This document shows, piece by piece, positions 5,828 to 56,166 of a stretch of 64,000 nucleotides of DNA (the first letter of the stretch is position 1; every line of letters begins with the position of its first letter). The stretch comes from Kondoa subrosea (taxonomy: Eukaryota), in the NCBI GenBank assembly GCA_039545335.1, contig BCIN01000002.1, positions 620,001 through 684,000 of the forward strand. Reading direction: 5' to 3'. A program made the position numbers and the translations under genes. The notes below the pieces were generated by a model that was not told the origin of the DNA, ran no database searches, and saw nothing but the letters and a program-made list of their open reading frames with translations.

Positions 5828-7236
5828 ATGAAGACTACTTCTTCTTCACAACAGCCGTCACTTAGACTTTCACTCCGATTCAATCCACTGAGTAAATCTC
5901 ACTCTGACGTTTCTTTACGATCTCTTGTCAACGACACATCGCAACATTACAACACATCTACATATAAACAAAAAGTAAAGATGCCAGAACGAACCTTCTC
6001 AATTGATATACCTCAATACAATACCTTAACTAGATCTCAAAGTCGAACTTTACCTTCTCCAACTGATTCTGGGAAACGAACTCGAACTTTAACGACCCCG
6101 TATCAACAGCAACGCTTATGTGATCTGCTTGCAGAGGTCTGTGCTTTCTTCCTACTTGGCTTTGGAAGAAACATTCTCAAGGAAAAATGTCCTTGTTTGT
6201 TCAGACTGCTTTCCCAAGTACTAAGCAACGTACGGATCTAGGAGAGGAGATAGGCATGAGTGCGAGAAGAGTACAGGTGCGGATCTCTTTGCCCACTGTA
6301 ATTCCGCTTCATACAGAATTTCTAATATGTTCGCTCGCGTGGTAAAGGTGTGGTTTCAGAATAAACGACAAACATATAAGCGTAAACAAGGTGAAGAGCG
6401 ACTGTCCACTGGATCAGATCTATCTCAATCTGTGTGTCCTTCTGCTTATTTCCTTCCAAATCCAAAATTGATCTTTCGGTTTGCAGCCTCTTGGGTCGTC
6501 ATTGCGAAGATCAAGCTCAATAGCGGATCGCAATTCTGTTTCTCTGGCAGATATCTCCTCACCCTCAACAAGTTCTTCCTACTCATCTCAATCACCTCCA
6601 AGCAGGTTCACCAGCCCACGTCAACCTCTGACTCGAGAACCTTCCTACCGTAGCTCGACCTTCCAACTGCCTTCTTACGATTCCAGACCAATCCAACGAC
6701 CGTCCAATATCTCTTACACCTCTTACCGAGATCCATATCCAGCATCAGGAGAACTCGATTCACCCTCAACTCCATCAGGTACTTTTTCACCTTACTCCTC
6801 CTACAACTCCTCTTCTACTCCTATTGGATTATCGAAATCTCAATCCAATTATGATCTTTATTCTTCCACTTCTTCTTCAAGATTACCACCTATCGCTTCC
6901 CTCAATGCAGGTTTAGGAAACTCTTACTCTTATCCTTTGGATGGTTCTCAATCTCGTTATCCACCATTCAGCGAATCATCCAACTGCAGTAATCGATTCC
7001 CTTCCTATTCTTCCTCTGGTAATGCAGGAGGAGGAGATATGTTTGGGTCTTTAAGTTTGGGTGAAAGTTTTTCAAGGGAGAGAAGATTGAGTGGGTCAGC
7101 TGGAGGAGGAGGAGTCAGATTGCCGCCTGTTAGTAGTTTGATTGATGAGGTGGATGCTATGTGTATGCCGAGAAGTGAAAGAAGGTTGAGCAGAGGGTAT
7201 TCGGGAAGTGTCAGAACAACGAATGGTTTCTTTTGA
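5828..7236 (+). CDS. Homeodomain transcription factor (Q50 type) with Ser-rich C-terminus; start may instead be the ATG at 5981
   Basis: Splicing three exons gives KRTRTLTTPYQQQRLCDLLAE-TAFPSTKQRTDLGEEIGMSARRVQ-VWFQNKRQTYKRK. Confidence 0.88.
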
Positions 7237-16647: not shown

Positions 16648-18643
16648 TCAAGAAGCAGTCTGAGATGCGCTCGGCCTTCTTCGTCGGTTAGCAACATAAC
16701 GCCTGAATCTACCTGCTGTTGAGGTACTTGTCGTCGTCCCGTTCGTAGCTTCTCTCGCATGATCGCCACCTTCCTCGTTTGTTGATCCTCTTGTGTTACT
16801 TCTCTGTCTCATTCGAGCGAACAGCGATTGCCTAGGCACTTCATTATTCGCGCCCAAATCCAATTCTTCCTCCACGACGGGCGCATCTCCACTTAGATCC
16901 AATCGACACAAAGGACATACTGAAGATACGCCAAGCAACCATTCATCAACGCAAGCCATGTGGAAAGCATGTCGACTATCGCAAGGTAAGATTCGCAAAT
17001 CTTCTCCCTCTTGGAAATCTTCTACGCAGATAGGGCATGATCTTGCGTTGTCTACATCTTCTGGTGCTGGCAATGGAGAAACCGTTGTATTGACAACAGG
17101 TGCAGAGTGGGAAGTAGGAGAAGGTTGAGCTTCTGTACTTTCTTGTGTGTTCTCTTCGATTGGAAGAATAGCAGGAGCAGGTACAACCCGGGTCGAACCA
17201 TATTCCAGATCTTGCATTTCTACTTGAGAGTCAACGTCTTTTGCTTGTTGTTGGTCATCCGCTGCGTTGTTGTTATTGTCATTCGACCGGAACTTGACTA
17301 CGGCAAAAGTGTCCAATACAGCTCGAGTCAGACCTCTTGCTCGAGTTTGTCTTGCAGCTCCCGGTCCATGACCTGCTGCTCGAGGTCCATAACGTTCTGG
17401 ATGTCTAATTGCTTTAATGGCCTGAGAAACAACATAATCAGCCTTCGTTATTGAGTATGTCCGATCTAGCTTACTCCACTCAAGATGACTACCAGGAAGA
17501 GTAGAGTAACACAGGCCGTTGCAGAATAAAGCACCTGCCGACCTTCATCAGCCAAAATTCCAACAGCGCGAGAAGCTTTTTTGGGCTTACAATCATAGCT
17601 AATCCAGTTGAAGGACCTCCTCCACCGCCATTTTGATTTCCATTCCCGTTCGCTCCTCCGCCTCCGCCTGATCCAAGAGTAGAATTCTGAGCGAAAACGG
17701 TTTGCTTATTCGCCAATACCGCAATCAGATATGCAGCGCCAGCAGAAGAAGTAGCTTGAGCTGCTGAATTAGTAGTTGAAGGATTAGCTTGTCTTTTGAC
17801 CAAAGAAGAAGAGGAAGCTATAGAAACTAAATCGTTTGCTGTTGGCGAGAGATCAGTCGGATCTGAAAAATCGGTAGTTGAAGAAGGGTTAGGATCTGCG
17901 ATTGTTGTTGGGCTAATTGGATCTGATATAGTTGTACCGCTGATAGAAGCACTGGATGAAGCTATTGTAGCTGGATCAAGGTAAAGAGTATTGTTCAAAG
18001 CGTTCCAAATTGCATCGGTTGAAGCATTGAGTAAACCGGAGTTATAATAATAAGAAGTCTTGTCTACATTGATAAATTGCGAATCGATAAGAAGAGCTGA
18101 TTGCCGTGAAGTAGTCGAATACACATCGAGCGGTTTCTCAAAGTTCTGAATATAGTCCGGATTCATCAAGCAAGCCGCACTGGTGGTGGAATAGAGTAGG
18201 GCTGCTATTGCACCGCGATCTCTTGCTAGTGTAAAGACATCGTCCGTGTCTGAAGAGACTGTTCCATTCGAGTCGCATGATATGAGAGCCACGAAGGGCG
18301 CGGTAGTTGCTCCTCCTGTTGCGTTGGCTTCTGTGAAGTGAACCAGCGCACCACGAGCTGCATATTGTGTGCCAGTTTGGGTTGAATTATCAGCGATTAG
18401 TTGCCTGCCAGTCAGCAGATTGTTCAGCATGGCGTGGAGTCATTGATTTCTTGTTGAGACTGACCTGCTAATGCTGTCTCGGTACAAGCCCATACGCTGT
18501 GCATATCCCACCCATTGCAGCTGTATGAAATCGTCGGATGAATTGAGCACTGTTGAATCATTTGTCGGCGAAGAGGGGATATAGGCCAACACAGCGTTGC
18601 CAGCTATAGCCAGCCAGACGGCGGCGTGTATGTATGCCAGCAT
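16648..18643 (-). CDS. Signal peptide + PA-like luminal domain + TM + RING-H2 E3 ubiquitin ligase (fungal PA-TM-RING type)
   Basis: Signal peptide MLAYIHAAVWLAIAGNAVLA; VALISCD...ALLYS; TM after STGLAM; RHPERYGPR; RING-H2 CPICVEDF..LRILPC..HAFH..CVDEWL....CPLCR. Confidence 0.9.
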
Positions 18644-20648: not shown

Positions 20649-23600
20649 TCACAGATCACTTCCATTTTCATGCTGTATGGAGCTTAAGTAATTTGTAAAC
20701 CGTGCTCGGAACTATGACGGAGCACAGAAGTCAGTGATTAATATGTATAGTAGCGTGATCGTACCCCTTTTTCCAACTTTGCGCGACCTTCAGAGAACTG
20801 CACGATGCTGAGCGCAATCTCAAACCATGCTCGAGCATCAGGCCGGTTCGCGAGTTGTAGATCAATAGCACAGTCCCAAGTAATAGCGACAAGCCTGTAC
20901 GATAATTAGCAAGGTGAAAGTTAAGAATGGCACACTAACCATTCAATTTCTTCGCGAGGATAAGAATCCTGTCCTCTGCATGAGAACATACAAAATCAAG
21001 CCTAAAAGTACACACAGTCTTTGATTTAATCAGTGTATGCGCCTGTTGAATGAATTGCAACGCTTGATCTGAATCGCCATTTGTCAATTGTAGCTCTGTG
21101 ATCTGCCGAAGCCAGCGGGCGAAGGTTGCACTGAAGATGAGAGTCAGCTTTAGCGGCCACCTGCAAGAACAACTGACATATCGAGTGCCTTATGCGCCAG
21201 CAAGGCGGATAGGATACTCTGCTCCAGAGATATGTCATTCATACCAGTATCAAAACAGGCTTATGTCCCTCACTTTCAGGCAATCAGATAAAACTGAGCA
21301 GATTGATGAGCTCATCATCCAGAGCGAGAACCGATACAGCTTACGATCAGTAGGTAAGTCTGTGCATCGGCAGACTTGCTCGGCAAGTGAATGCAGTAGT
21401 TTCGTAGAAGATCCGCCATCGGAGGCAGCATTCTGTTGAGAATCAGCAACCTGTTAATTTATGTAGTCCCGCTTACCACAAGAACTTCCTTTGCATCAGT
21501 CCAGTCTTGCTGTTTCAACAGAATTTGAAGCTGATAGTCAACGATCGCATCTGAGATAGCCGGTATAGGCAATGAGGTATGCGCTGAGCGCGATAACAAG
21601 TCTTGTAGTTGTGTGATATGAGTAAGCAGTTCTGACTGAGATCTCAGTCAGAAAGGCGCCGCTGATAGAGAAGGGAGATGACCCACTGCATCGGGTAAAT
21701 TCTCGATTCCAGCACTGAGACATTGCATACAAGCACTGAGTGAAGCAAAGCGACATCGAACGATCCGTTCCGATAGCTCGCTATTGGAGAAATGACCCGA
21801 TTGTTGCACAAGAGCAAAATCAGCAGCAAGATCGAAGAGGATGCCTAAGTGCAGGCCAGGCCAATTCTTCTTGATGCCCTTGACAGCAAGGTTGTATGCT
21901 GTGAAAGGCAATCAATGCAGTAGACACGTAGCGAATCAAATACATACCAGTGATGGAGAGCCATTCAGCGTCATCTGAACGACCTTGGCTCTGATCTGTA
22001 GTTCTCTTTTCCAGCAGCTCTTTGGCTGAACTCGACATCAGCAAAGGCGAGGAGTCAGAATTTACAACATACCTGATACCAGATGCTGTTCGACAACCGC
22101 TAGTCTGCTCCTATGGGAGACTTTAGCTCCGCCTGTACAAATATTGCCATGATTTACTCTATACTGTCATGGTCTGCAGCTTCCAGCTGAGACACAGCCA
22201 AACGAACGAGACATCTACAATTTTTTTTGTTAATAACGCTCTTTGACACTGCAAAGCGTAACCCACCTGATCAAAACCAGTACGTCAACGCTTCCTGGCA
22301 CATTGCCCAGCTTTGTCGCATTATCATAAACTAAAGCAAGCATCTCCTCTAGTAGTCGATTAGATCCAGTCGTTTCAAAATCATACTGCTGCTGAACCGC
22401 TCTAAGAAGCATATCGAACTTGAAATTAGGGGCTTTGACCATCTCCCTAATGGCTTGCATTGCTGGTTGCTCATCACCCGATAGACCATGAGCGAGAAAT
22501 AGGATATAACATGTGCAGGCATCTGATTTTAGTGAAGGTTTGTTCATCAACAAATCTTTGGCCAGCTGATATTCTTGTTGATGCAATGCGCAAATGGCCG
22601 CTTTCCGATAAGCTTTAGGGAAAGTAGAGGAAGAGAGGAGTGAGAAGAGTGGGTTTGTGGTTGTGAGCATGAACCATCGTCTGGCTGTTTCGAAATCTTC
22701 TTGGGCTATTGATTTATCGCCTAGTGACCAGAGCAGGGATTGGCAAGCAAGACATGACTCGGACGACAAGTGAAAGCCGGTATCTATCTCTGTAAGTCTT
22801 TGGATAGCCGATTCTATCGCAGCAACATCCTTGTAGGTGGAAAGAAAGATCAAGGTAAGTAAAGCTGTTCCGACCAGTTCTTGCAAGTGCTGAAGCTTTG
22901 TACCGGTATCGAGCAGGGTAACGATCACAACAGTGAGAATGTCGAGTTTTTGAGCTTTCTGTGAATCGGGTAGGGAGTAAATGTTAGAAAGAAGCTTATC
23001 AAGACATTCTCTTTCGTTGGGGTCCAAATTCGACGCTGCGAGTTGGAACGCTTCCGATACCACTGCTTGACCGGATTTCCTGGTAATGGCAACAACAATT
23101 TTGCGTTGATAGAGTTTGAAGGATGGAGATATAGCTAGAATCTGGTCAATGGCAGCGTCTGCAAGTTCAGCATTCTTCGGAATGGTAGATGAGGTATGCA
23201 GGTATGCGCTGGCTGGAAGTCTGATCATCAGATCAAATAGGCTCGCTGACCAGCGATGTCTTACCAAGAAGCTTGAGACTTTGAGTCCTCAGTTTGGTTA
23301 GTTTGAATCGAGCTTTGTCCGATGAGGAAGCCGAATTGCTTGAAGTTGTTCTACTATCCGAGTCATCGCTCAGCAGCAGCAAAGGTCCATCGAGCAGCCA
23401 TGTAATAGCTTTCTCAGCTTGCTTCATGCTCGAATCCGTTTTCCCCTTTTCGGCCGAATCCAATAACGACTTGGCATAATTGAAAGTTCGCATAATGAGC
23501 ATCTCCAATTCTGCAACGCCGCAGTAAGATCGGAGAGCAAGAGCTTGCTTCATCATATATTCCGTCAAAGCCTCATTACGCTGAGCCAAAGCAAGATCTG

Positions 23601-37642: not shown

Positions 37643-38390
37643 TTATGGGAAGCGGGTCTTCTTCATCTGTGAGACTAGTTTTTGTGTAGCTTGAACGATT
37701 AATTCATGTTCCACTTGATGCATCCTTTGTTCCAAAGCTTCAACGCTTTCACCAGATTTCATTTCCACTTCTTTGACCAAGATGGGTTGACCTTTGTCTA
37801 CTTCTGGAATCACTTCATGCACCATCACTCCAGTCTTTTTGATTTCTCCTCTTGCAAAGCTTTCATGGGCTCGTGCTATAGCGTTGGCACCATCGAAAGC
37901 ACCAGGTAAAGCAGGATGTAGATTGATGATTGGTATCTTTTTCCCTTGCTTCCCTTCTTCTCCTCCTTCTCCTTCCAGTGTAGGTCTGACTAACAATTCC
38001 AAGAATTTGTTACTGAAGATATGCATCCAACCAGCCAACACGACCAAATCTGGATGTTGAGCAACAACTAATTCTGCTAATTTCGTATCGTAATCTTCCC
38101 TTGTTGCACCAGGATGAGAAGATAGATAAGGTTTGCATGCGAAATGTGAAGAAGGGACATTATAGATCGAAGCTCGAGTTAGACCATAAGCTGTTTTACG
38201 TGATGAGAGAACATGGACGATGTTCAGTTTCGGTTGAGCGTCTAGGAGAGCTTGTAGGTTGCTGCCTGAGCCGGAGATGAGGACTACTACCCGAGGCTGA
38301 GAGACCTTTACATGAGTGATTGAACGAAAAGCAGTGCTGCGAAGAGAGACTGACTTCAGAGCCCGAAGAGCTGGTAGAGGTGCTAGTCAT
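37643..38390 (-). CDS. ADE8: Phosphoribosylglycinamide (GAR) formyltransferase
   Basis: VVVLISGSGSNLQALLDA, AYGLTRA, VVLAGWMHIFS, INLHPALPGAFDG, TGVMVHEVIPEVDKG. Confidence 0.96.
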
Positions 38391-38969
38391 AGCTCGCTTG
38401 ATCACTGCAGTAATAAACCTTGGGTGTCAGCGTTCTGACAAGAAGAGGAGCCTCAGGATATAAATTCGCTTGGCTGTCATCTTCGCACGAGCAAGCAGCG
38501 TACGGACTCAGCCGGCTCTCGTCGAGTCTCTGCATTTCATTAGCTACATATCTTTCGTATTAGCTACTCTGCTGAGGCTTTCTCAATGTCACAACGCGTA
38601 GCAAGGATGCATCATGGTAATGCTTGAACTCCTTCATGGTCGGTTTCCAGGCGAAATGCTCTTCGTGCTATGCATCTCTGGTCTTCATCGTGGCTCTTCG
38701 CGTTTTCCTTTTGTTGTACTCTTCATCGATTTTCGCTGGCTTCCTTTTCTCCTCTCTTGACGCTGGCAACTCTGCGAGACAGCCTCGCCTATAAGGTCAA
38801 TGCCTTATTGTCGTTCGATCGAAGTGAATTTGATACAGTATAGCCAATCGCGTCCTTTGGTCCGAGCTGTCTTACGTCCGGCTGGTGGTTTGATTCGCTC
38901 ATTGTTAATCCTTCTTCTCCCCGTCTTATCGATCGCGCTTCTTACTTGAGATAACATACAACTCCTTCT

Positions 38970-40441
38970 GATGTCCGCTGAGCTGCATAATGTTGAAGCG
39001 ATTCGTCGTAGGCTCTCTAACAGTGCGTCTTGGAGCAGTACCATTGGCCGACCCGTAGATCATTCTGTGAGCTTTCTAGTGCGTTCGATGTCCCGTCTGA
39101 TGCTTTCTTCTAGCCGACTCGATCGCTCGACAAATTGTTGTATTGGGTGGGAAAGCCGCAACATCGGGCTCTACTCTTGATCATGTCCGGTCCTCAACCT
39201 GACAAACCTCAGCCGGCCAGAGTACTTGATCACAATGAGCAGGCTATTCTGTTCTGCTGTTTTGCTAAAGACTGGGAAGATCTATATCCGGCCCTTCGAG
39301 AGATTGCTTCAAATGAAGACTTGGATCAAAAGGAGGAGATGACAGAGATCTCAGCCTTACCTGAATGGAGTCCATTCTTACATGCTTTCTCTCACTATGC
39401 TTTCGGTCACTTGAATGCTTTGAAGAAAACTCATGAAGCACTTCAAGTCAAAGACTGGTGCGATAATTTACTCAAGGTATGTAGTGTACTTTTGCGCCAT
39501 TAGTGTACTACTAAAGTCGCCGCTTGAAAATCAAGCATACGGGACCGCAATCTTCAGCCTTGTCTTTTAAATATCGAATCGACGAAACTACTGCTGCTTG
39601 CACTGCGATTGCTCGCGGGACAGAAACTTGGCTAAATTTCAAAAGTCAAGCTGCACCAGTACAGGGTATCCGTTTCAAGCGTCTCTTTCCTAGCATTGTC
39701 AGGGCCATTGTTGATCTTGACAAACATGTCAAACTCGAGGGCACCGCTAATTTCTCTGCACATCTACATCTGTCTCAAACAATTTACATCGGGAAAGATA
39801 ATAATCAGCAATCTTGGCATGTTCACGAATTTCTTAGAGCGTTCCTCGGCTACCTGAATAGTTCTGCCGCTGATGCTATCTTGAACGAATGGAATCAGCC
39901 GAATCCTCAACCGAAGAACATCCCCCTAACCCTCCATGGAAAACAGATGCGCTGGCAATTGGGTGTCGCAATTCACGATGTCCTGAATGTAAGTAATGCT
40001 CTTGTGTCCAAGCCGAAGCTGATCGAAGTACCTTACAGCTGTTATGGGATGAGTGAGTCATTAAATCATTCGTACAACACAAACTCATGGCGTCTTCATG
40101 CAGTCAATACAGACCTACGCTGGTCAATCGATCAGGTATAGCTGTTGGCCCAACCACGAACGTTCCTTGATTGATTCGATGATTGTTTGACCAGCATATA
40201 ATAGCGACGATCATCTTCCTAAGCATCGTAAGAACCTTTCGCAGAGCCAATCACAACTCACAGCTCACTGCAAACGTCAGATAACGTCGTAAATGCCGGT
40301 AAAAATGATACGAAGGACTACATGCAGGACAGACGCGAAGGTCAGCAGGCTGTGCTGCTTCATCGGGAAGCAAATTGACGAAGCGCTTCTTGAACAGAAA
40401 TTATGAAAGCACGTATCGCGCCCGGTTCTCGTCACTCCTGA
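38970..40441 (+). CDS. Orphan protein, copy A of an inverted paralog pair (unique N-terminal region + shared core)
   Basis: Intact spliced model: MSAELH.. / ..QSWHVHEFLRAFLGYLN..MRWQLGVAIHDVLN / LLWDD (14-nt exon 40039-40052) / QYRPTLVNRS / AYNSDDHLPKH / NVVNAGK..RRE / EIMKARIAPGSRHS*. Confidence 0.7.
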
Positions 40442-40490
40442 ATAGTCCGATTGTGGGTACGAGGTCTAGAGTTGACATGCCTTATGCTGA

Positions 40491-42587
40491 CTAGTGCATC
40501 GAGTCTGCTAGATATCCGGCAGAACCCTTTATTTGTCTCTTGTAATATAGATCTTTCTCTTTTGCTCCTAGAGTTGTGCTATAGTCCGTGACCAATACAA
40601 GACTGCTTTCAGATTGTACAACTCGAGTCCAAATTATGACTGGATGTAGACAGTATGCTAATTTGGCGTCCTTCGATGCAGATGAGACTACTTTCATCAC
40701 GATTGCTAGTTCGCTGAACGGGGAGTATACAGAAATGACGAATTGCATAAAAGTAAAAGCGGGCTACAAATTCTGAAGGTGAGTTGCCGTCAATTGTCCT
40801 GGGTGTAGTAGATCCATGCGAATGTAAACGGTTGCGATCTTTTTTCAGCGATTAGCCAAGAGAACCTCCAGATCTGATGACGCCCTTTGTAAACAGCATC
40901 GTACTGATTGGCGATTTCGGCGACAGTTTGTGCTGGACAGCCCGGAAATTGGTGCGCCTCCAGGCCAGTCCATCGCACTGGAAAGTGGACCAATAAGAAA
41001 CTAGACGTATCCTCATACTGATGTATACTTACAGTCCGTTGCAGTATGCACAGAATGAGGTAGAACTAGAACCCGGTCAGTCTGAGGCACTACTTGAGTA
41101 TGTGACATAGCTCACCTAGATCAATGCCAGCGTGCTCAGAAAGGCGATAATACTTGCGTAGATCCTCATGCGGGACGACGAGAGGCTCGTAATCCCAACC
41201 GCACATCCGTTCTTGTGACAAAGATTTGTGTTCTATAGTATCTCTGCTTCGCGTTTTGTGGAAAATCCACACGCTGTAACGTCGTGCGTTAGCAAAATCA
41301 TCGCAGTAGGCCCAGTGACCGTAAAAGCTGGAAACCGATCCATCCCAAGTAGTCAGAAGCGAATCCTTAAGATCTATCCATCTTACTAAGGTAAACGCAG
41401 TCAGATTTACGACGCGCTGATCTGAAGAAGAACTGCTCACGAGTCGAAAAGTGCTCTTGCACGTAAGAAGGCACTGTGTTTATATTAGCCTGACGTCTGA
41501 TAGATAGCAGGACTTGCAATTGCTGTTCCAGCCGAGCTGGACTCGTGCAGGGACTTTGAAAGCAGCTCTTAGTTCGTCAGTAAATGTTGGCTTAGCAGGT
41601 ATCGGAGACGGCTGAGGAGCATGATGAATAGGCATAGAGGGCGGCCTGGGATGCGCTTTCATGATATCTGTTTGTAAAGCGCTTCGATCAATCGCTTCTC
41701 CAGGAAGCATCACGGCCGACTGACCTTCTCGTCTGAGTTCCATGTAGTTCTTGATATCATCTTTACCGGCATTTGCAAGGATATCTGACATTCTAAGTGA
41801 GCTGTAAGTTGTGATTGCCTCGGCGAAGATTTCTTACGATGCTTTGGAAGATGATCATCGCTGATATATGCTGTTCGTGTAATCGTAGAATGAGGTCACG
41901 GACATGCCCCCTCGAGCAAACGGCTTTACCTGATGGCGTCACACTCGCAGGTCTGTGACCACTACATGAAGACGACGTCAGTTTGTGATGAACGAATCAA
42001 AGATGACTCACTCATCCCATAAGAGCTGTACAGTAATTCGATCAGCTTCGGCTTCGACACAGGAGCATTACTTACATTCACGACATCGTGAATTGCGACG
42101 CCCAATTGCCAGCGCATCTGTTTTCGAGCAAAGTCTGAGGAATTGTTGGTCTGTGCATGATGCTGTTCGGTCCAGCTGGTCAAGCTGACATCGGCAGCAG
42201 GACTATTCAGATAGGCGAGGAACGCTCGAAGAAATTCGTGGATATACCAGGATTGCTGATTGTGCTTGTTCCCAATGTAAGCTTCTTGAGACGAACGCAA
42301 ACGTGCAGCGAAATTAGTGGTGCCCTCGACTTTGACATGTCTGTCGAGATGGACAATGGTTGTGGCAGTGTTAGAGAAGAGACGCGAGAAGAAATTAGCA
42401 AGCTCTGCTTCTGGTCGACTCTTCAGCTCCAGCCATTCTCCTGTCCCAAGAGCAATTGCATCGCAAGCAGCAGAAACTTTCTCACTTGGATCAAAGCTAC
42501 TCTCTGGAGAAGATCATGTTGCTTACGAAGGTCTTCAGGTGGGACGGACGTTGCGATCCCCGTACTTGATAGTTCTGCTATATTCAT
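40491..42587 (-). CDS. Orphan protein, copy B of an inverted paralog pair (shared core + Pro-rich linker + unique C-terminal region)
   Basis: Same exon series as copy A (QSWYIHEFLRAFLAYLN..MRWQLGVAIHDVVN / LLWDD / GHRPASVTPS / AYISDDHLPKH / ILANAGK..RRE / DIMKAHPRPP..), then further exons (one with a GCAAGT donor) to TAG at 40491; the start and the last splice are uncertain. Confidence 0.62.
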
Positions 42588-43108
42588 TTGCTGAGATGCT
42601 GATAGTGATTCAGAGATGAAAACAGAGAGGAGTCGGTATGTGAAAGAGAAAGAGAGAGGGAGAGAATGAACTGAGCCTTTTAGATATGACGCGAAGAAAG
42701 GGAAAGCTGAAACAAACAATATCAAAGAGCACTGCAACGTAATGAATGTTTCGCTGTACAGCAAGATCACTAGGACTGCACGCAAAAGCGATAAGTTAAC
42801 AGCAACTCAGCGAGCCACTTTGGACGGCTCGAAGTTGTATTCTGTTGCAGTACTAATCAAGGCGGTGCACAATGAGTCATTGAGTGTAGCAACGAAGCCT
42901 ATCAAAGCTTTCATTACTGGAAGCTTGAGCAGTGTTAAGGTGTAATGCGAACTTCGACAGGCAGGGAAGCAGACTGAATTGCCTATCTTGCCCTGAGCCT
43001 TAATTGGCATTGGCAGTCTGAGCTACAGCCCGGGTACATTCTGCCAGCGGTTCGCATCAAGCCTTCGGTCGTTCGAATCAGCAGCTTTCTGTCTTGACCT
43101 AAACGGCA

Positions 43109-53654: not shown

Positions 53655-56166
53655 TCAATACACTTGATCTTTAAGCTCATCCTTCCCACTTGAATGCTTC
53701 CCATCCTCTTCAGATGTCTCGTCAGCTGACGGCTTCTCCCTCTTTAATTTCTCTGACTTCTTCTTTGGCCGCTTCCGACCCACTTCATCTGCGCTTTGCT
53801 CTTTCTTCAGTACTCCTTCTCTTAAACCCTTGCTCCTCTTTCGAGGCTTCTTCTTGTTTTCGTCGATTTCCGAATCCGATGAAGCTGATTCGATGAATTC
53901 TAATGCAGTAGCTTCTTGCTCAGCAGAGTCAACATAACTCTCTCTTCCGTTATCCGCCACAGCAGCCGAAAGAGGTACCGGTGTACGGAGCTCGCTGTTC
54001 AGATCAGGGCTCTCATTCACTTGAAGATTTGGAACGAGCAGTAGATTGCCTAATTTGCTTAGATCTGGTTCGTTCCGTTTTGCAGTCTTCTCCTTGGTAG
54101 GTTTCCGCTTAGTAGTGTCTTTTAGCTTCGATTCGGCTTTGTTCTTGAGGCCTTTGACTTTAGGTAAAGCAAACGAATCTCTTCCGGTATTTGAGAAAGG
54201 TTTAGTCCGCTTGATCGGTTTACTAGCAATCAAGGGTAATCGTTTGGGTGCCGATTGAAGCGGTTCTGTTGCTTTGGAAGCTGGTTGTGGGTCTTTTGAA
54301 AAAGAAGGAAGAGGTGAAGGATCTGAGAACTCTGAAATGGCGTTAGTGATGAATCGATCGAGACTATCATGAAGACGAGGAGTAGGTATAGGTCTCCGCA
54401 TAGGTTCCAGCTCGAAAGTTGAAGCAGAGTGAGTCTTCGTATGCATAGCTTGAGGTTTGCCTAAAGTCAGATACTTGGCATGACTCGACTTTTGTGATAA
54501 AGTAGCTTTCTCAGGCATGAAAGAAGGCCTTGATATGGGTGGCAGAGGCTTCTTTGGTTTCAAAGGTGTAGAGAAAGGGAGGACAAGCTTATCAAGATCA
54601 GGTATAGTGCTTGGCCGGGATCGTTTAGTCTGCGAATCTGCTATTCGTACAGTCGGATTGCTTGTGACAGGTGGTAGATTGTCAACGAGAGATTCAGTTG
54701 CGCCAGCACTACTGTCGACTTGAAAGTCGGACGGTATGACTTGAAGCGTTGGTGAAATGCGACGAATAGGTGGAGGTGGAGCAGGTGTATGTTCTCGCTT
54801 CTCGAGAAGAACAGGCACAGCTGTAGAAGACTGCACTGGAGCGACATCTCTGTCTGATGTTCTGCTAGACTGCTTGAACCTTCCCACTCGAAGAGGTGTA
54901 GGACTAGATTGTGATCAGGAGAGAAGAACACTGTAAAACGCAAAACATACGGTACTTCTCGCGCTTTCACTAGAAGATCTTCGAGTAAATCTTCGCTAAC
55001 CAATTCTTGGGTTGTAATCGAAGGTTTCGTCAGCTCTTGCAGTTGCGCGTAGGCTTGCGTGTATCTTCTTGTTCCTACAGGTGGATTATATGGTACCGCT
55101 TCTGGCTTCTTCGGCAGAAGAGCTGGAACAGGCGCCTGCTTTGGCTGAATAGTAGTTTGTCTAGTAGGAGGCTGTACAGAGCGAGATGGTTGTTCTATTG
55201 CTCTATCTATAGGAATAGTAGGCTGAATAGGTCTTCCTGCAGGTCTAGAGAGAGTCTTGCGAGCGTATTTGCGTTCTTTGTCCGATATGAGACGAGTCGT
55301 GCTATCGATGGAGTCCGATCTGAAAGTATCTGATTGCTTCTTCTGTCTCATTGACGGTGATGCAGCACGCTTGACGACTTCCGCATTATCCCCTGCCAAC
55401 TTATTAGCGGTGCAGACTTCTACCGAACCTGGACTTACAACCTAGTCCAAACAGCTCGTTCTCCAGATCTCTTCGCATAGATAGCTCGTCTGACGTTCGG
55501 ACGACTTTGACCCGCTTATTTGAAGAGTATCGTCGACCAGATGCACACAAGAAGATCATCGCGAAAGTGCTTATCAGAATAATGGCAGCTGGAGCCAAAG
55601 ATAGTGTTGCGCCAGGAGAGATAGACTTGAATCCACTTCGATTGAAGAGAAAGAAGAGAGACGCCAAAGATGCTACTGCTCCGCCAAAAGTGAATCCAAA
55701 GCTGACAAGATACGGTATTGATACCGTCTAAAGGTAAAAGAAGTCAGTCACGATGTATGTAAAGCACTAGCTGCGAGCATACCAGCGCATCTTGACAGAC
55801 CAGACTCGCCCAGAAAGTACAGAGGCTCAATACCGCGGTCGACGCATGCCTGGTCCAATTAATGAGCTCATCGTTCACCATCGATCAAGCTAGAACTCAC
55901 GCTACAGTCAAGAAGAAGCGAATAGAGGCCTCGTCTGTGGCCCAACAGATCTTCTGGTCTTTTGGACAATTTGACAGAAACCAAGCCCCGATTCGAACAT
56001 CGTTAACTCTCGCCAAGGATAGGAACGTAACGTTGCGTTGACCAGTTGCAAAGATACAAACCACAAAGGACGCCGCGGTGAGAATATGTAGTAGCGAGAA
56101 GATGATTCGCGGATCCAGAGCATGCTCTTTTCTGTCTTCATCTGAGTTGACAGGAGACGGAGACAT
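53655..56166 (-). CDS. SUR7/PalI-like four-TM membrane protein with very long Pro/Lys-rich cytoplasmic tail
   Basis: Five spliced exons: TM1, loop IGAWFLSNC...C (claudin/SUR7-like), three more hydrophobic helices, then in-frame joins (WDNAEVVK.., PPTPLRVGRFKQ..) to the 410-codon ORF. Confidence 0.6.

Follow-up and report, generated by a model that had tools for sequence, protein, structure and literature searches.

Chimeric genes can arise by partial segmental duplication and recruitment of flanking sequence. Gene pairs that occupy the arms of a palindrome and are homogenised by intrachromosomal gene conversion form another general class. Many introns and very small exons are usual for basidiomycete genes. 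In this work, we analysed a 64,000-nucleotide stretch of contig BCIN01000002.1 of Kondoa subrosea (positions 620,001 to 684,000, called the window below; all coordinates are counted from its first letter), and we focused on an inverted, tail-to-tail pair of paralogous genes between an ADE8-like and an EDE1-like gene. We call them copy A, on the forward strand, and copy B, on the reverse strand. In our judgement, it is probable that A and B are two real lineage-restricted paralogs, which arose by a partial inverted duplication and were both kept as fast-evolving, separate accessory genes. The orphan family is undescribed, and this is what is new here; the phenomenon itself, a partial duplicate in inverted orientation that has a chimeric end and carries a conversion tract, is known already.

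When the region 38500-43100 was compared with the whole window by blastn, 39591-40410 (+) matched 42473-41655 (-) with 75.8% identity over 823 columns (E 1.8e-161). This inverted repeat was the sole non-self match of the region within the window. The arms lie 1.2 kb apart, and the divergence between the copies is 24%. A global MAFFT alignment contains a single gap across the repeat span, and the exons are free of indels. The spliced module common to A and B is identical at 111 of 190 residues (58%), and the large core exons share 53% of their amino acids. The DNA homology starts at about 39560-39591, near the acceptor of the core exon, and ends at about 40410-40420, that is, about 40 nucleotides (nt) past the stop of A. 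The N-terminal exons of A and the C-terminal region of B gave no blastn match elsewhere in the window. The first-pass annotation had described a tightly linked tail-to-tail duplicated orphan pair, homologous in both DNA and protein and carrying different appended ends, between housekeeping genes, and this description holds.

The pair is similar to chimeric genes formed by partial duplication in that an internal segment was copied, the homology stops in or near exons, both copies have ends of their own, and the stop of one of them lies no more than about 14 codons from the breakpoint. Unlike such genes, A and B are inverted 1.2 kb apart, appear to exchange sequence still, and belong to a family for which no relatives were found. 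With palindrome-arm pairs they share the inverted arms, the short spacer and a highly identical tract (119/130 nt) that includes intron sequence. However, the arms of A and B are short (0.8 kb) and old (dS, the synonymous divergence, is about 0.5), and the apparent conversion is confined to a small patch, whereas near-identity of the whole arms is absent. Like the wtf, Spok and het loci, A and B are lineage-restricted, fast-evolving, duplicated and tightly linked; unlike these loci, they have no Pfam similarity in the pieces scanned and no membrane segments. In contrast to the multi-pass wtf proteins, no hydrophobic 19-mer of A or B rises above 0.82, and in contrast to loci of the HET/NLR type, the predicted core is a plain helical bundle. 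The wtf, Spok and het systems are known from ascomycetes, whereas the window is Agaricomycete-like. A and B also resemble the orphan genes of Agaricomycetes, being intron-rich, with very small exons and no detectable homologue. They differ from a typical orphan gene of this kind in that two diverged copies provide internal evidence for selected coding sequence.

Maintained frames in both copies

To estimate the neutral expectation, the segment of A (785 nt, five exon parts and eight splice dinucleotides) was subjected to random substitution in 5000 simulated runs per level of divergence. The frame and all eight dinucleotides survived in 534/5000 runs at 6% divergence, in 66/5000 at 12% and in 1/5000 at 24%. 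Because retention of the frame and the splice sites exceeds the neutral expectation and the exons carry no indels, both copies have apparently been selected to stay translatable for most of their history. The selection on the protein itself is weak. In the core, the nonsynonymous divergence (dN) is 0.305 and dS is 0.463, which gives a dN/dS of 0.66 in the frame vs 0.75 and 0.94 in two wrong frames. The codon-usage signal is frame-specific and positive in exon 2 of A, in both cores and in the linker of B. Neither core frame contains an early internal ATG, so each needs to be joined to its own upstream exon for translation. Each copy does have an upstream exon that fits in phase, namely exons 1-2 in A and a 22-nt exon in B.

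The first-pass annotation had recognised neither protein, and the searches agree with it. In hmmscan against Pfam-A with a limit of E 1, seven exon or open reading frame (ORF) translations matched no family above its cut-off; the hits under the cut-off fell on unrelated families by chance. A search of the B core against 1.84 billion representative proteins found 0 homologues up to E 0.001. The C-terminal ORF of B had no relative among proteins of 70-226 amino acids (aa), and the N-terminal exon of A had none among proteins of 213-2000 aa. Two metagenome scans produced 306 and 35 pattern matches, none of which was confirmed. Sequence searches of the PDB returned nothing for the C-terminal ORF of B or for exon 2 of A, and a profile of the core reached E 0.04 or worse. 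In the ESM Atlas, the A core had no usable hit; the C-terminal ORF of B obtained scores of up to 0.85 to unrelated clusters, including glycosyltransferase-type families, and we treated these as noise. The literature on inverted duplicates and basidiomycete orphan genes yielded nothing relevant among the matches listed.

From the two-sequence alignment of the A and B cores, a six-helix bundle was predicted with a mean local confidence (pLDDT, predicted local distance difference test) of 71.3 and a predicted template modelling score (pTM) of 0.68. A well-known housekeeping family behind the core, which the earlier annotation had named as the finding that would overturn its proposal, did not appear: Pfam gave none, and Foldseek with the predicted core found 0 matches in the PDB up to E 0.001 (lowest E value 0.16). 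VIA-align of the core against 48161 chains reached a best Z of 7.6, to assorted helical proteins; by the tool's own guidance, helical bundles need about 13 or more before Z is informative. Both proteins are hydrophilic, with a grand average of hydropathy of -0.4 to -0.6. No transmembrane segment or signal-like N-terminus was found in A or B, and the maximum 19-residue Kyte-Doolittle mean is 0.75-0.82. Conserved His and Asp residues had raised the idea of a metal motif like that of HD-phosphohydrolases or terpene synthases; we rejected it, as such families were absent from the Pfam and fold-search results. Pfam also gave no homeodomain hit in the pieces scanned, and the pair is convergent and paralogous, unlike the divergently transcribed homeodomain genes of the HD1/HD2 mating-type pair of basidiomycetes.

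Gene models of copies A and B

The model of copy A has 7 exons and an open frame of 362 aa. It was chosen by requiring splice sites conserved in both copies; unconstrained enumeration gave 612,340 paths. Exon 1 (38971..39066, +; ATG at 38971, 32 codons) is the least certain exon and has a weakly positive codon-usage signal. It is followed by a 47-nt GTGAGC..TCTAG intron and by exon 2 (39114..39476, +), an open frame of 121 codons that forms the N-terminal part unique to A. The frame-specific codon signal of exon 2 is 0.18/0.26 vs 0.09-0.33 in eight training ORFs. Translation could also begin at the in-frame ATG at 39183, and the unique N-terminal part would then have 98 aa vs 153 aa in the two-exon model. 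The core exon (39536..39988, +) has 151 codons, is homologous to the B core and encodes the predicted bundle. Next comes a 14-nt micro-exon (40039..40052, +), which encodes LLWD plus 2 nt and is bordered by GTAAGT..TTACAG and GTGAGT..ATGCAG introns; 13/14 of its nucleotides are identical in B.

Downstream of the micro-exon, a 32-nt exon (40104..40135, +; 20/32 identical to B) and a 33-nt exon (40195..40227, +; 29/33) lead to the last exon (40281..40378, +; 73/95), which ends at the TGA 40376-78. The acceptor of the 33-nt exon lies 10 nt upstream of the site implied by the first-pass annotation and is conserved as ..ACCAG in A and ..AACAG in B. It turned out that the exon set 14, 32, 23 nt puts a stop in copy A, whereas the version with 33 nt holds the frame in both copies. 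Within the 23 nt common to both exon versions there are two substitutions, and both are synonymous under the 33-nt model. Past the stop of A, the stretch 40379..40420 (+) is homologous to B coding sequence (30/42 identical) and contains another TGA in frame, at a site that reads as sense in B. The suggestion that A carries about 150 extra N-terminal residues and stops right after the core fits this model (153 aa, or 98 with the internal start).

Copy B has 277 aa up to an in-frame TAA; with additional introns that are weak or unusual, it would reach 439-449 aa. Its exon 1 (42566..42587, -) consists of 22 nt with the ATG at 42587 and is followed by a 62-nt GTACGG..CTCCAG intron. This exon is the only route found that gives the core frame of B a start codon; shortly upstream, the core frame is closed by a TGA. 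About 8 residues then precede the shared module. The core exon (42076..42503, -) is homologous to the A core. The 14-nt micro-exon (42012..42025, -), the 32-nt exon (41930..41961, -) and the 33-nt exon (41838..41870, -) are conserved with A. Thus four introns stand at equal positions in the two copies (50/50, 51/50, 59/59 and 53/53 nt in A/B), all with GT..AG ends, and the intron positions and the LLWD(D) micro-exon that the first reading had described as common to the copies are confirmed. Antisense to the core exon of B there is a 151-codon frame at 42139-42594 (+) with a codon signal near zero. Only the sense frame is open in both arms, and the antisense counterpart in A is broken by stops; the antisense frame is probably a chance shadow ORF.

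The next exon of B (41480..41784, -) contains the end of the module and a Pro-rich linker. It has the highest codon-usage scores of the region and ends at the in-frame TAA 41480-82, unless this codon is spliced out. Two splicing routes would take out the TAA: a 69-nt intron whose GTCCAG donor is weak, or a 44-nt GC-AG intron combined with a canonical 55-nt GTGAGC..CTGAC..TTAG intron. In the candidate 44-nt intron (41474-41517, -), the donor (GCAAGT) fits the consensus and CTAAT forms a branch site. Such an intron, if real, would belong to the rare GC-AG class and would be shorter than the other modelled introns (47-62 nt). Unless it is spliced out, the TAA would be a real or recent stop. Beyond it lies the putative C-terminal part unique to B (40790..41479, -), which starts with 129 open codons directly behind the TAA in the same frame, continues with a 33-nt exon (41033-41065) and closes with a last exon (40790-40977) that ends at the TGA 40790-92; its canonical introns are 41115-41066 and 41032-40978. 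An open stretch of at least this length right after the TAA occurred in that frame in 43/20000 random sequences of the same composition, and in any of the six frames in 1593/20000. Because the frame is open beyond chance, the region probably is, or recently was, coding sequence of B. The unique region past the linker would have about 165-175 aa.

Extension of B past the TGA 40790-92 met only weak donors (GTTTAC, GTTCTC and GTCATC), and the furthest end obtained was 40491. The distance between the stops of A and B is 411 bp, or about 1.1 kb with the TAA as the end of B, which replaces the 49 bp given earlier. The B stop formerly placed near 40432 was reached by none of the single introns tried. 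As a result, two claims of the first-pass annotation stand in part. It had both copies open after splicing: A is open only with the 33-nt exon, since the 23-nt exon brings in a stop, and B is open as far as the TAA. It had B without the N-terminus of A and with a Pro-rich linker followed by a unique tail of about 300 residues; the first two features are present (about 8 residues stand in place of the A-type N-terminus), and the tail is shorter. In the spacer, a 90-codon open stretch (40494-40763, -) has a mildly positive codon signal (0.12/0.24), no good splice to B and no start of its own. It may be 3' untranslated region or part of an unrecognised exon.

Uneven divergence and rival explanations

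The divergence between the arms is uneven. The best 130-nt window, at about 39931..40060 with its partner at about 42004-42133, is identical at 119/130 positions, and 0/5000 column shuffles reach this value. Sliding identity there is 0.85-0.95, and the arms outside the tract are about 70% identical. The tract runs from the end of an exon over a whole 50-nt intron and the micro-exon into the donor that follows. Introns 3, 4 and 6 (39989-40038, 40053-40103 and 40228-40280, with their B partners) are identical at 128/153 positions vs 425/570 in exons (Fisher p 0.018), and in intron 5 the identity is only 34/59. In both copies, the frame is open through the first of these introns (39989-40038). 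Because intronic and synonymous sites are conserved in the tract, it is most likely a gene-conversion tract between the inverted arms. Alternatively, the identity of the tract and the introns could come from splicing-signal constraint around the 14-nt exon or from regulated intron retention. Two other candidates were rejected: repeat-induced point mutation, as the ratio of transitions to transversions is 100:102, and an intron-encoded small nucleolar RNA as the reason for intron conservation, as the introns are 50-51 nt long and have no Rfam match.

Several points weigh against two maintained genes. All splice sites of A and B are predictions from sequence. The 22-nt first exon of B with its GTACGG donor is a weak point, and the TAA 41480-82 stands in frame after the Pro-rich stretch. 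The C-terminal region of B has a codon signal near zero and a pLDDT of 35 in a single-sequence fold, and it is the least gene-like part of the pair. The N-terminal region of A and the C-terminal region of B could be recruited non-coding sequence. The dN/dS of 0.66 is weakly below 1 (rough z from counts about 1.7), and ongoing gene conversion could keep a dead copy looking intact. Such observations lend some weight to a reading that we consider possible but distinctly less probable, in which one gene is functional and the other is a decaying or non-functional partial duplicate: either A, truncated behind an upstream ORF, or B, lacking a proper start and cut by a nonsense codon. It would account for the two in-frame TGAs of A at sense codons of B and for the homology that runs past the stop of A. 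The TAA of B, with long stretches of one frame on either side, has the look of a nonsense mutation that happened recently, the start of B depends on the 22-nt exon and its weak donor, and 0.66 is the average expected of a constrained gene and a neutral copy. However, a decaying copy would hardly have kept the frame and eight splice dinucleotides over about 785 nt, since only 66/5000 neutral runs do so even at half the divergence; nor would its exons be expected to lack indels, or both cores to have an upstream exon that fits in phase. The same retention of frame and splice sites, far past the neutral expectation, makes a non-coding inverted repeat the least likely of the explanations considered. 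Here the repeat would be a source of hairpin or antisense RNA or a structural repeat, with frames open by chance. Read-through from A into the B arm would indeed form an imperfect hairpin, and no homologue backs the coding status. Nevertheless, the codon signal is frame-specific, the core is foldable as a helical bundle, arms of 76% identity are poor for double-stranded RNA, Rfam gave no match in the region at E 0.1 or better, and the substitutions show no bias of the repeat-induced-mutation type.

The first-pass annotation had also suggested a coupled two-gene system. In such a system, the helical core would pair the products, and the short A would modulate or neutralise the long B with its C-terminal effector, as in poison/antidote, sensor/executor or allorecognition pairs. 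We regard this as very unlikely. Tight linkage, a common module, different ends, fast protein evolution and orphan status are compatible with it, and the conversion tract indicates that the arms still exchange sequence, but a young partial duplicate of any kind would be expected to show all these features just as well, and no result gives the idea positive support. Pfam gave no HET, NACHT/NB-ARC, nuclease- or kinase-type, repeat sensor, toxin or driver family in the pieces scanned; transmembrane segments are absent, and the supposed effector region is the least gene-like part. A complex prediction for the A core with the B core, made without controls, returned no answer (score 0.00) and carries no weight either way. 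A more specific version is, if anything, even harder to credit: A would bind B through the helical bundle and control its C-terminal region as an antidote-like or dominant-negative partner, and the divergence of the exons vs the conserved introns would reflect diversifying selection. If it were true, the pair would be a new basidiomycete-specific two-gene selfish or recognition system. Two separate accessory genes remain the explanation that we favour.

Neighbourhood and origin of the pair

On the left of the pair there are an HSF-type factor and the ADE8-like gene, an ORF for glycinamide ribonucleotide formyltransferase (PF00551) at 37646-38386 (-). On the right lies the EDE1-like gene, in which a coiled coil and three hits to the EH domain were found. 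The flanks are therefore those named in the first-pass annotation, ADE8 and EDE1. Copies A and B are convergent to one another, and each is divergent from its housekeeping neighbour. The top match of all for the ADE8-like protein has 77% identity, and its closest named relatives are Agaricomycetes (Coprinopsis, Steccherinum and others) with at most 57%. Judged from these relatives, the window is basidiomycete and Agaricomycete-like. The rest of the 64 kb encodes an ABC1 kinase, an importin-like ARM protein, SRP68, MFAP1, ZIP, PROPPIN and HOOK, that is, housekeeping genes of an ordinary core chromosome. An ORF at 22233-23288 (-) has a SPO22/ZIP4-like meiosis protein domain (E 5.7e-12). Many long ORFs elsewhere in the window (150-420 aa; 53658-54914, 17492-18439 and 6472-7233 are examples) match no Pfam family. 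Since orphan-like coding sequence is frequent in this genome, the pair is less exceptional than it would otherwise appear.

We propose that a partial inverted segmental duplication of about 830-900 bp created the pair. The duplicated piece would correspond to one module of about 190-205 residues, made of the large exon, the three tiny exons (14, 32 and 33 nt) and the first part of the last exon. Since the copy took in no more than an internal segment, at least one of the genes must be chimeric. Copy A would then combine its unique N-terminal region with the module and stop right after it, and copy B would combine about 8 residues, the module and the Pro-rich linker, probably followed by a unique C-terminal region. 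Selection would have kept both copies translatable while the proteins evolved fast, and gene conversion most likely evened out a short tract of the two arms. In the simplest history, the ancestral frame went beyond the present stop of A, as that of B still does, and A was truncated close to the breakpoint. The tiny first exon of B and its weak C-terminal statistics look recruited, and this counts against B as the parent.

If expressed, as we infer, the products would be soluble intracellular proteins built on the predicted helical bundle. Probably the bundles bind a common target, and the different appended ends have led to sub- or neofunctionalisation. A and B most likely act as ordinary accessory genes and not as a coupled two-gene system. 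The pair would become important only if a genetic interaction, such as that of a toxin and its antidote, were proved, and it opens no long-standing question. If the explanation by two maintained paralogs is true, the locus would be a clean small example of the birth of new genes in fungi, in which an inverted internal segment of 0.8 kb acquired different recruited ends, selection retained both copies and a conversion tract connects them to this day, and the second copy would supply, from within the locus, evidence that an orphan ORF without other backing is a true coding gene.

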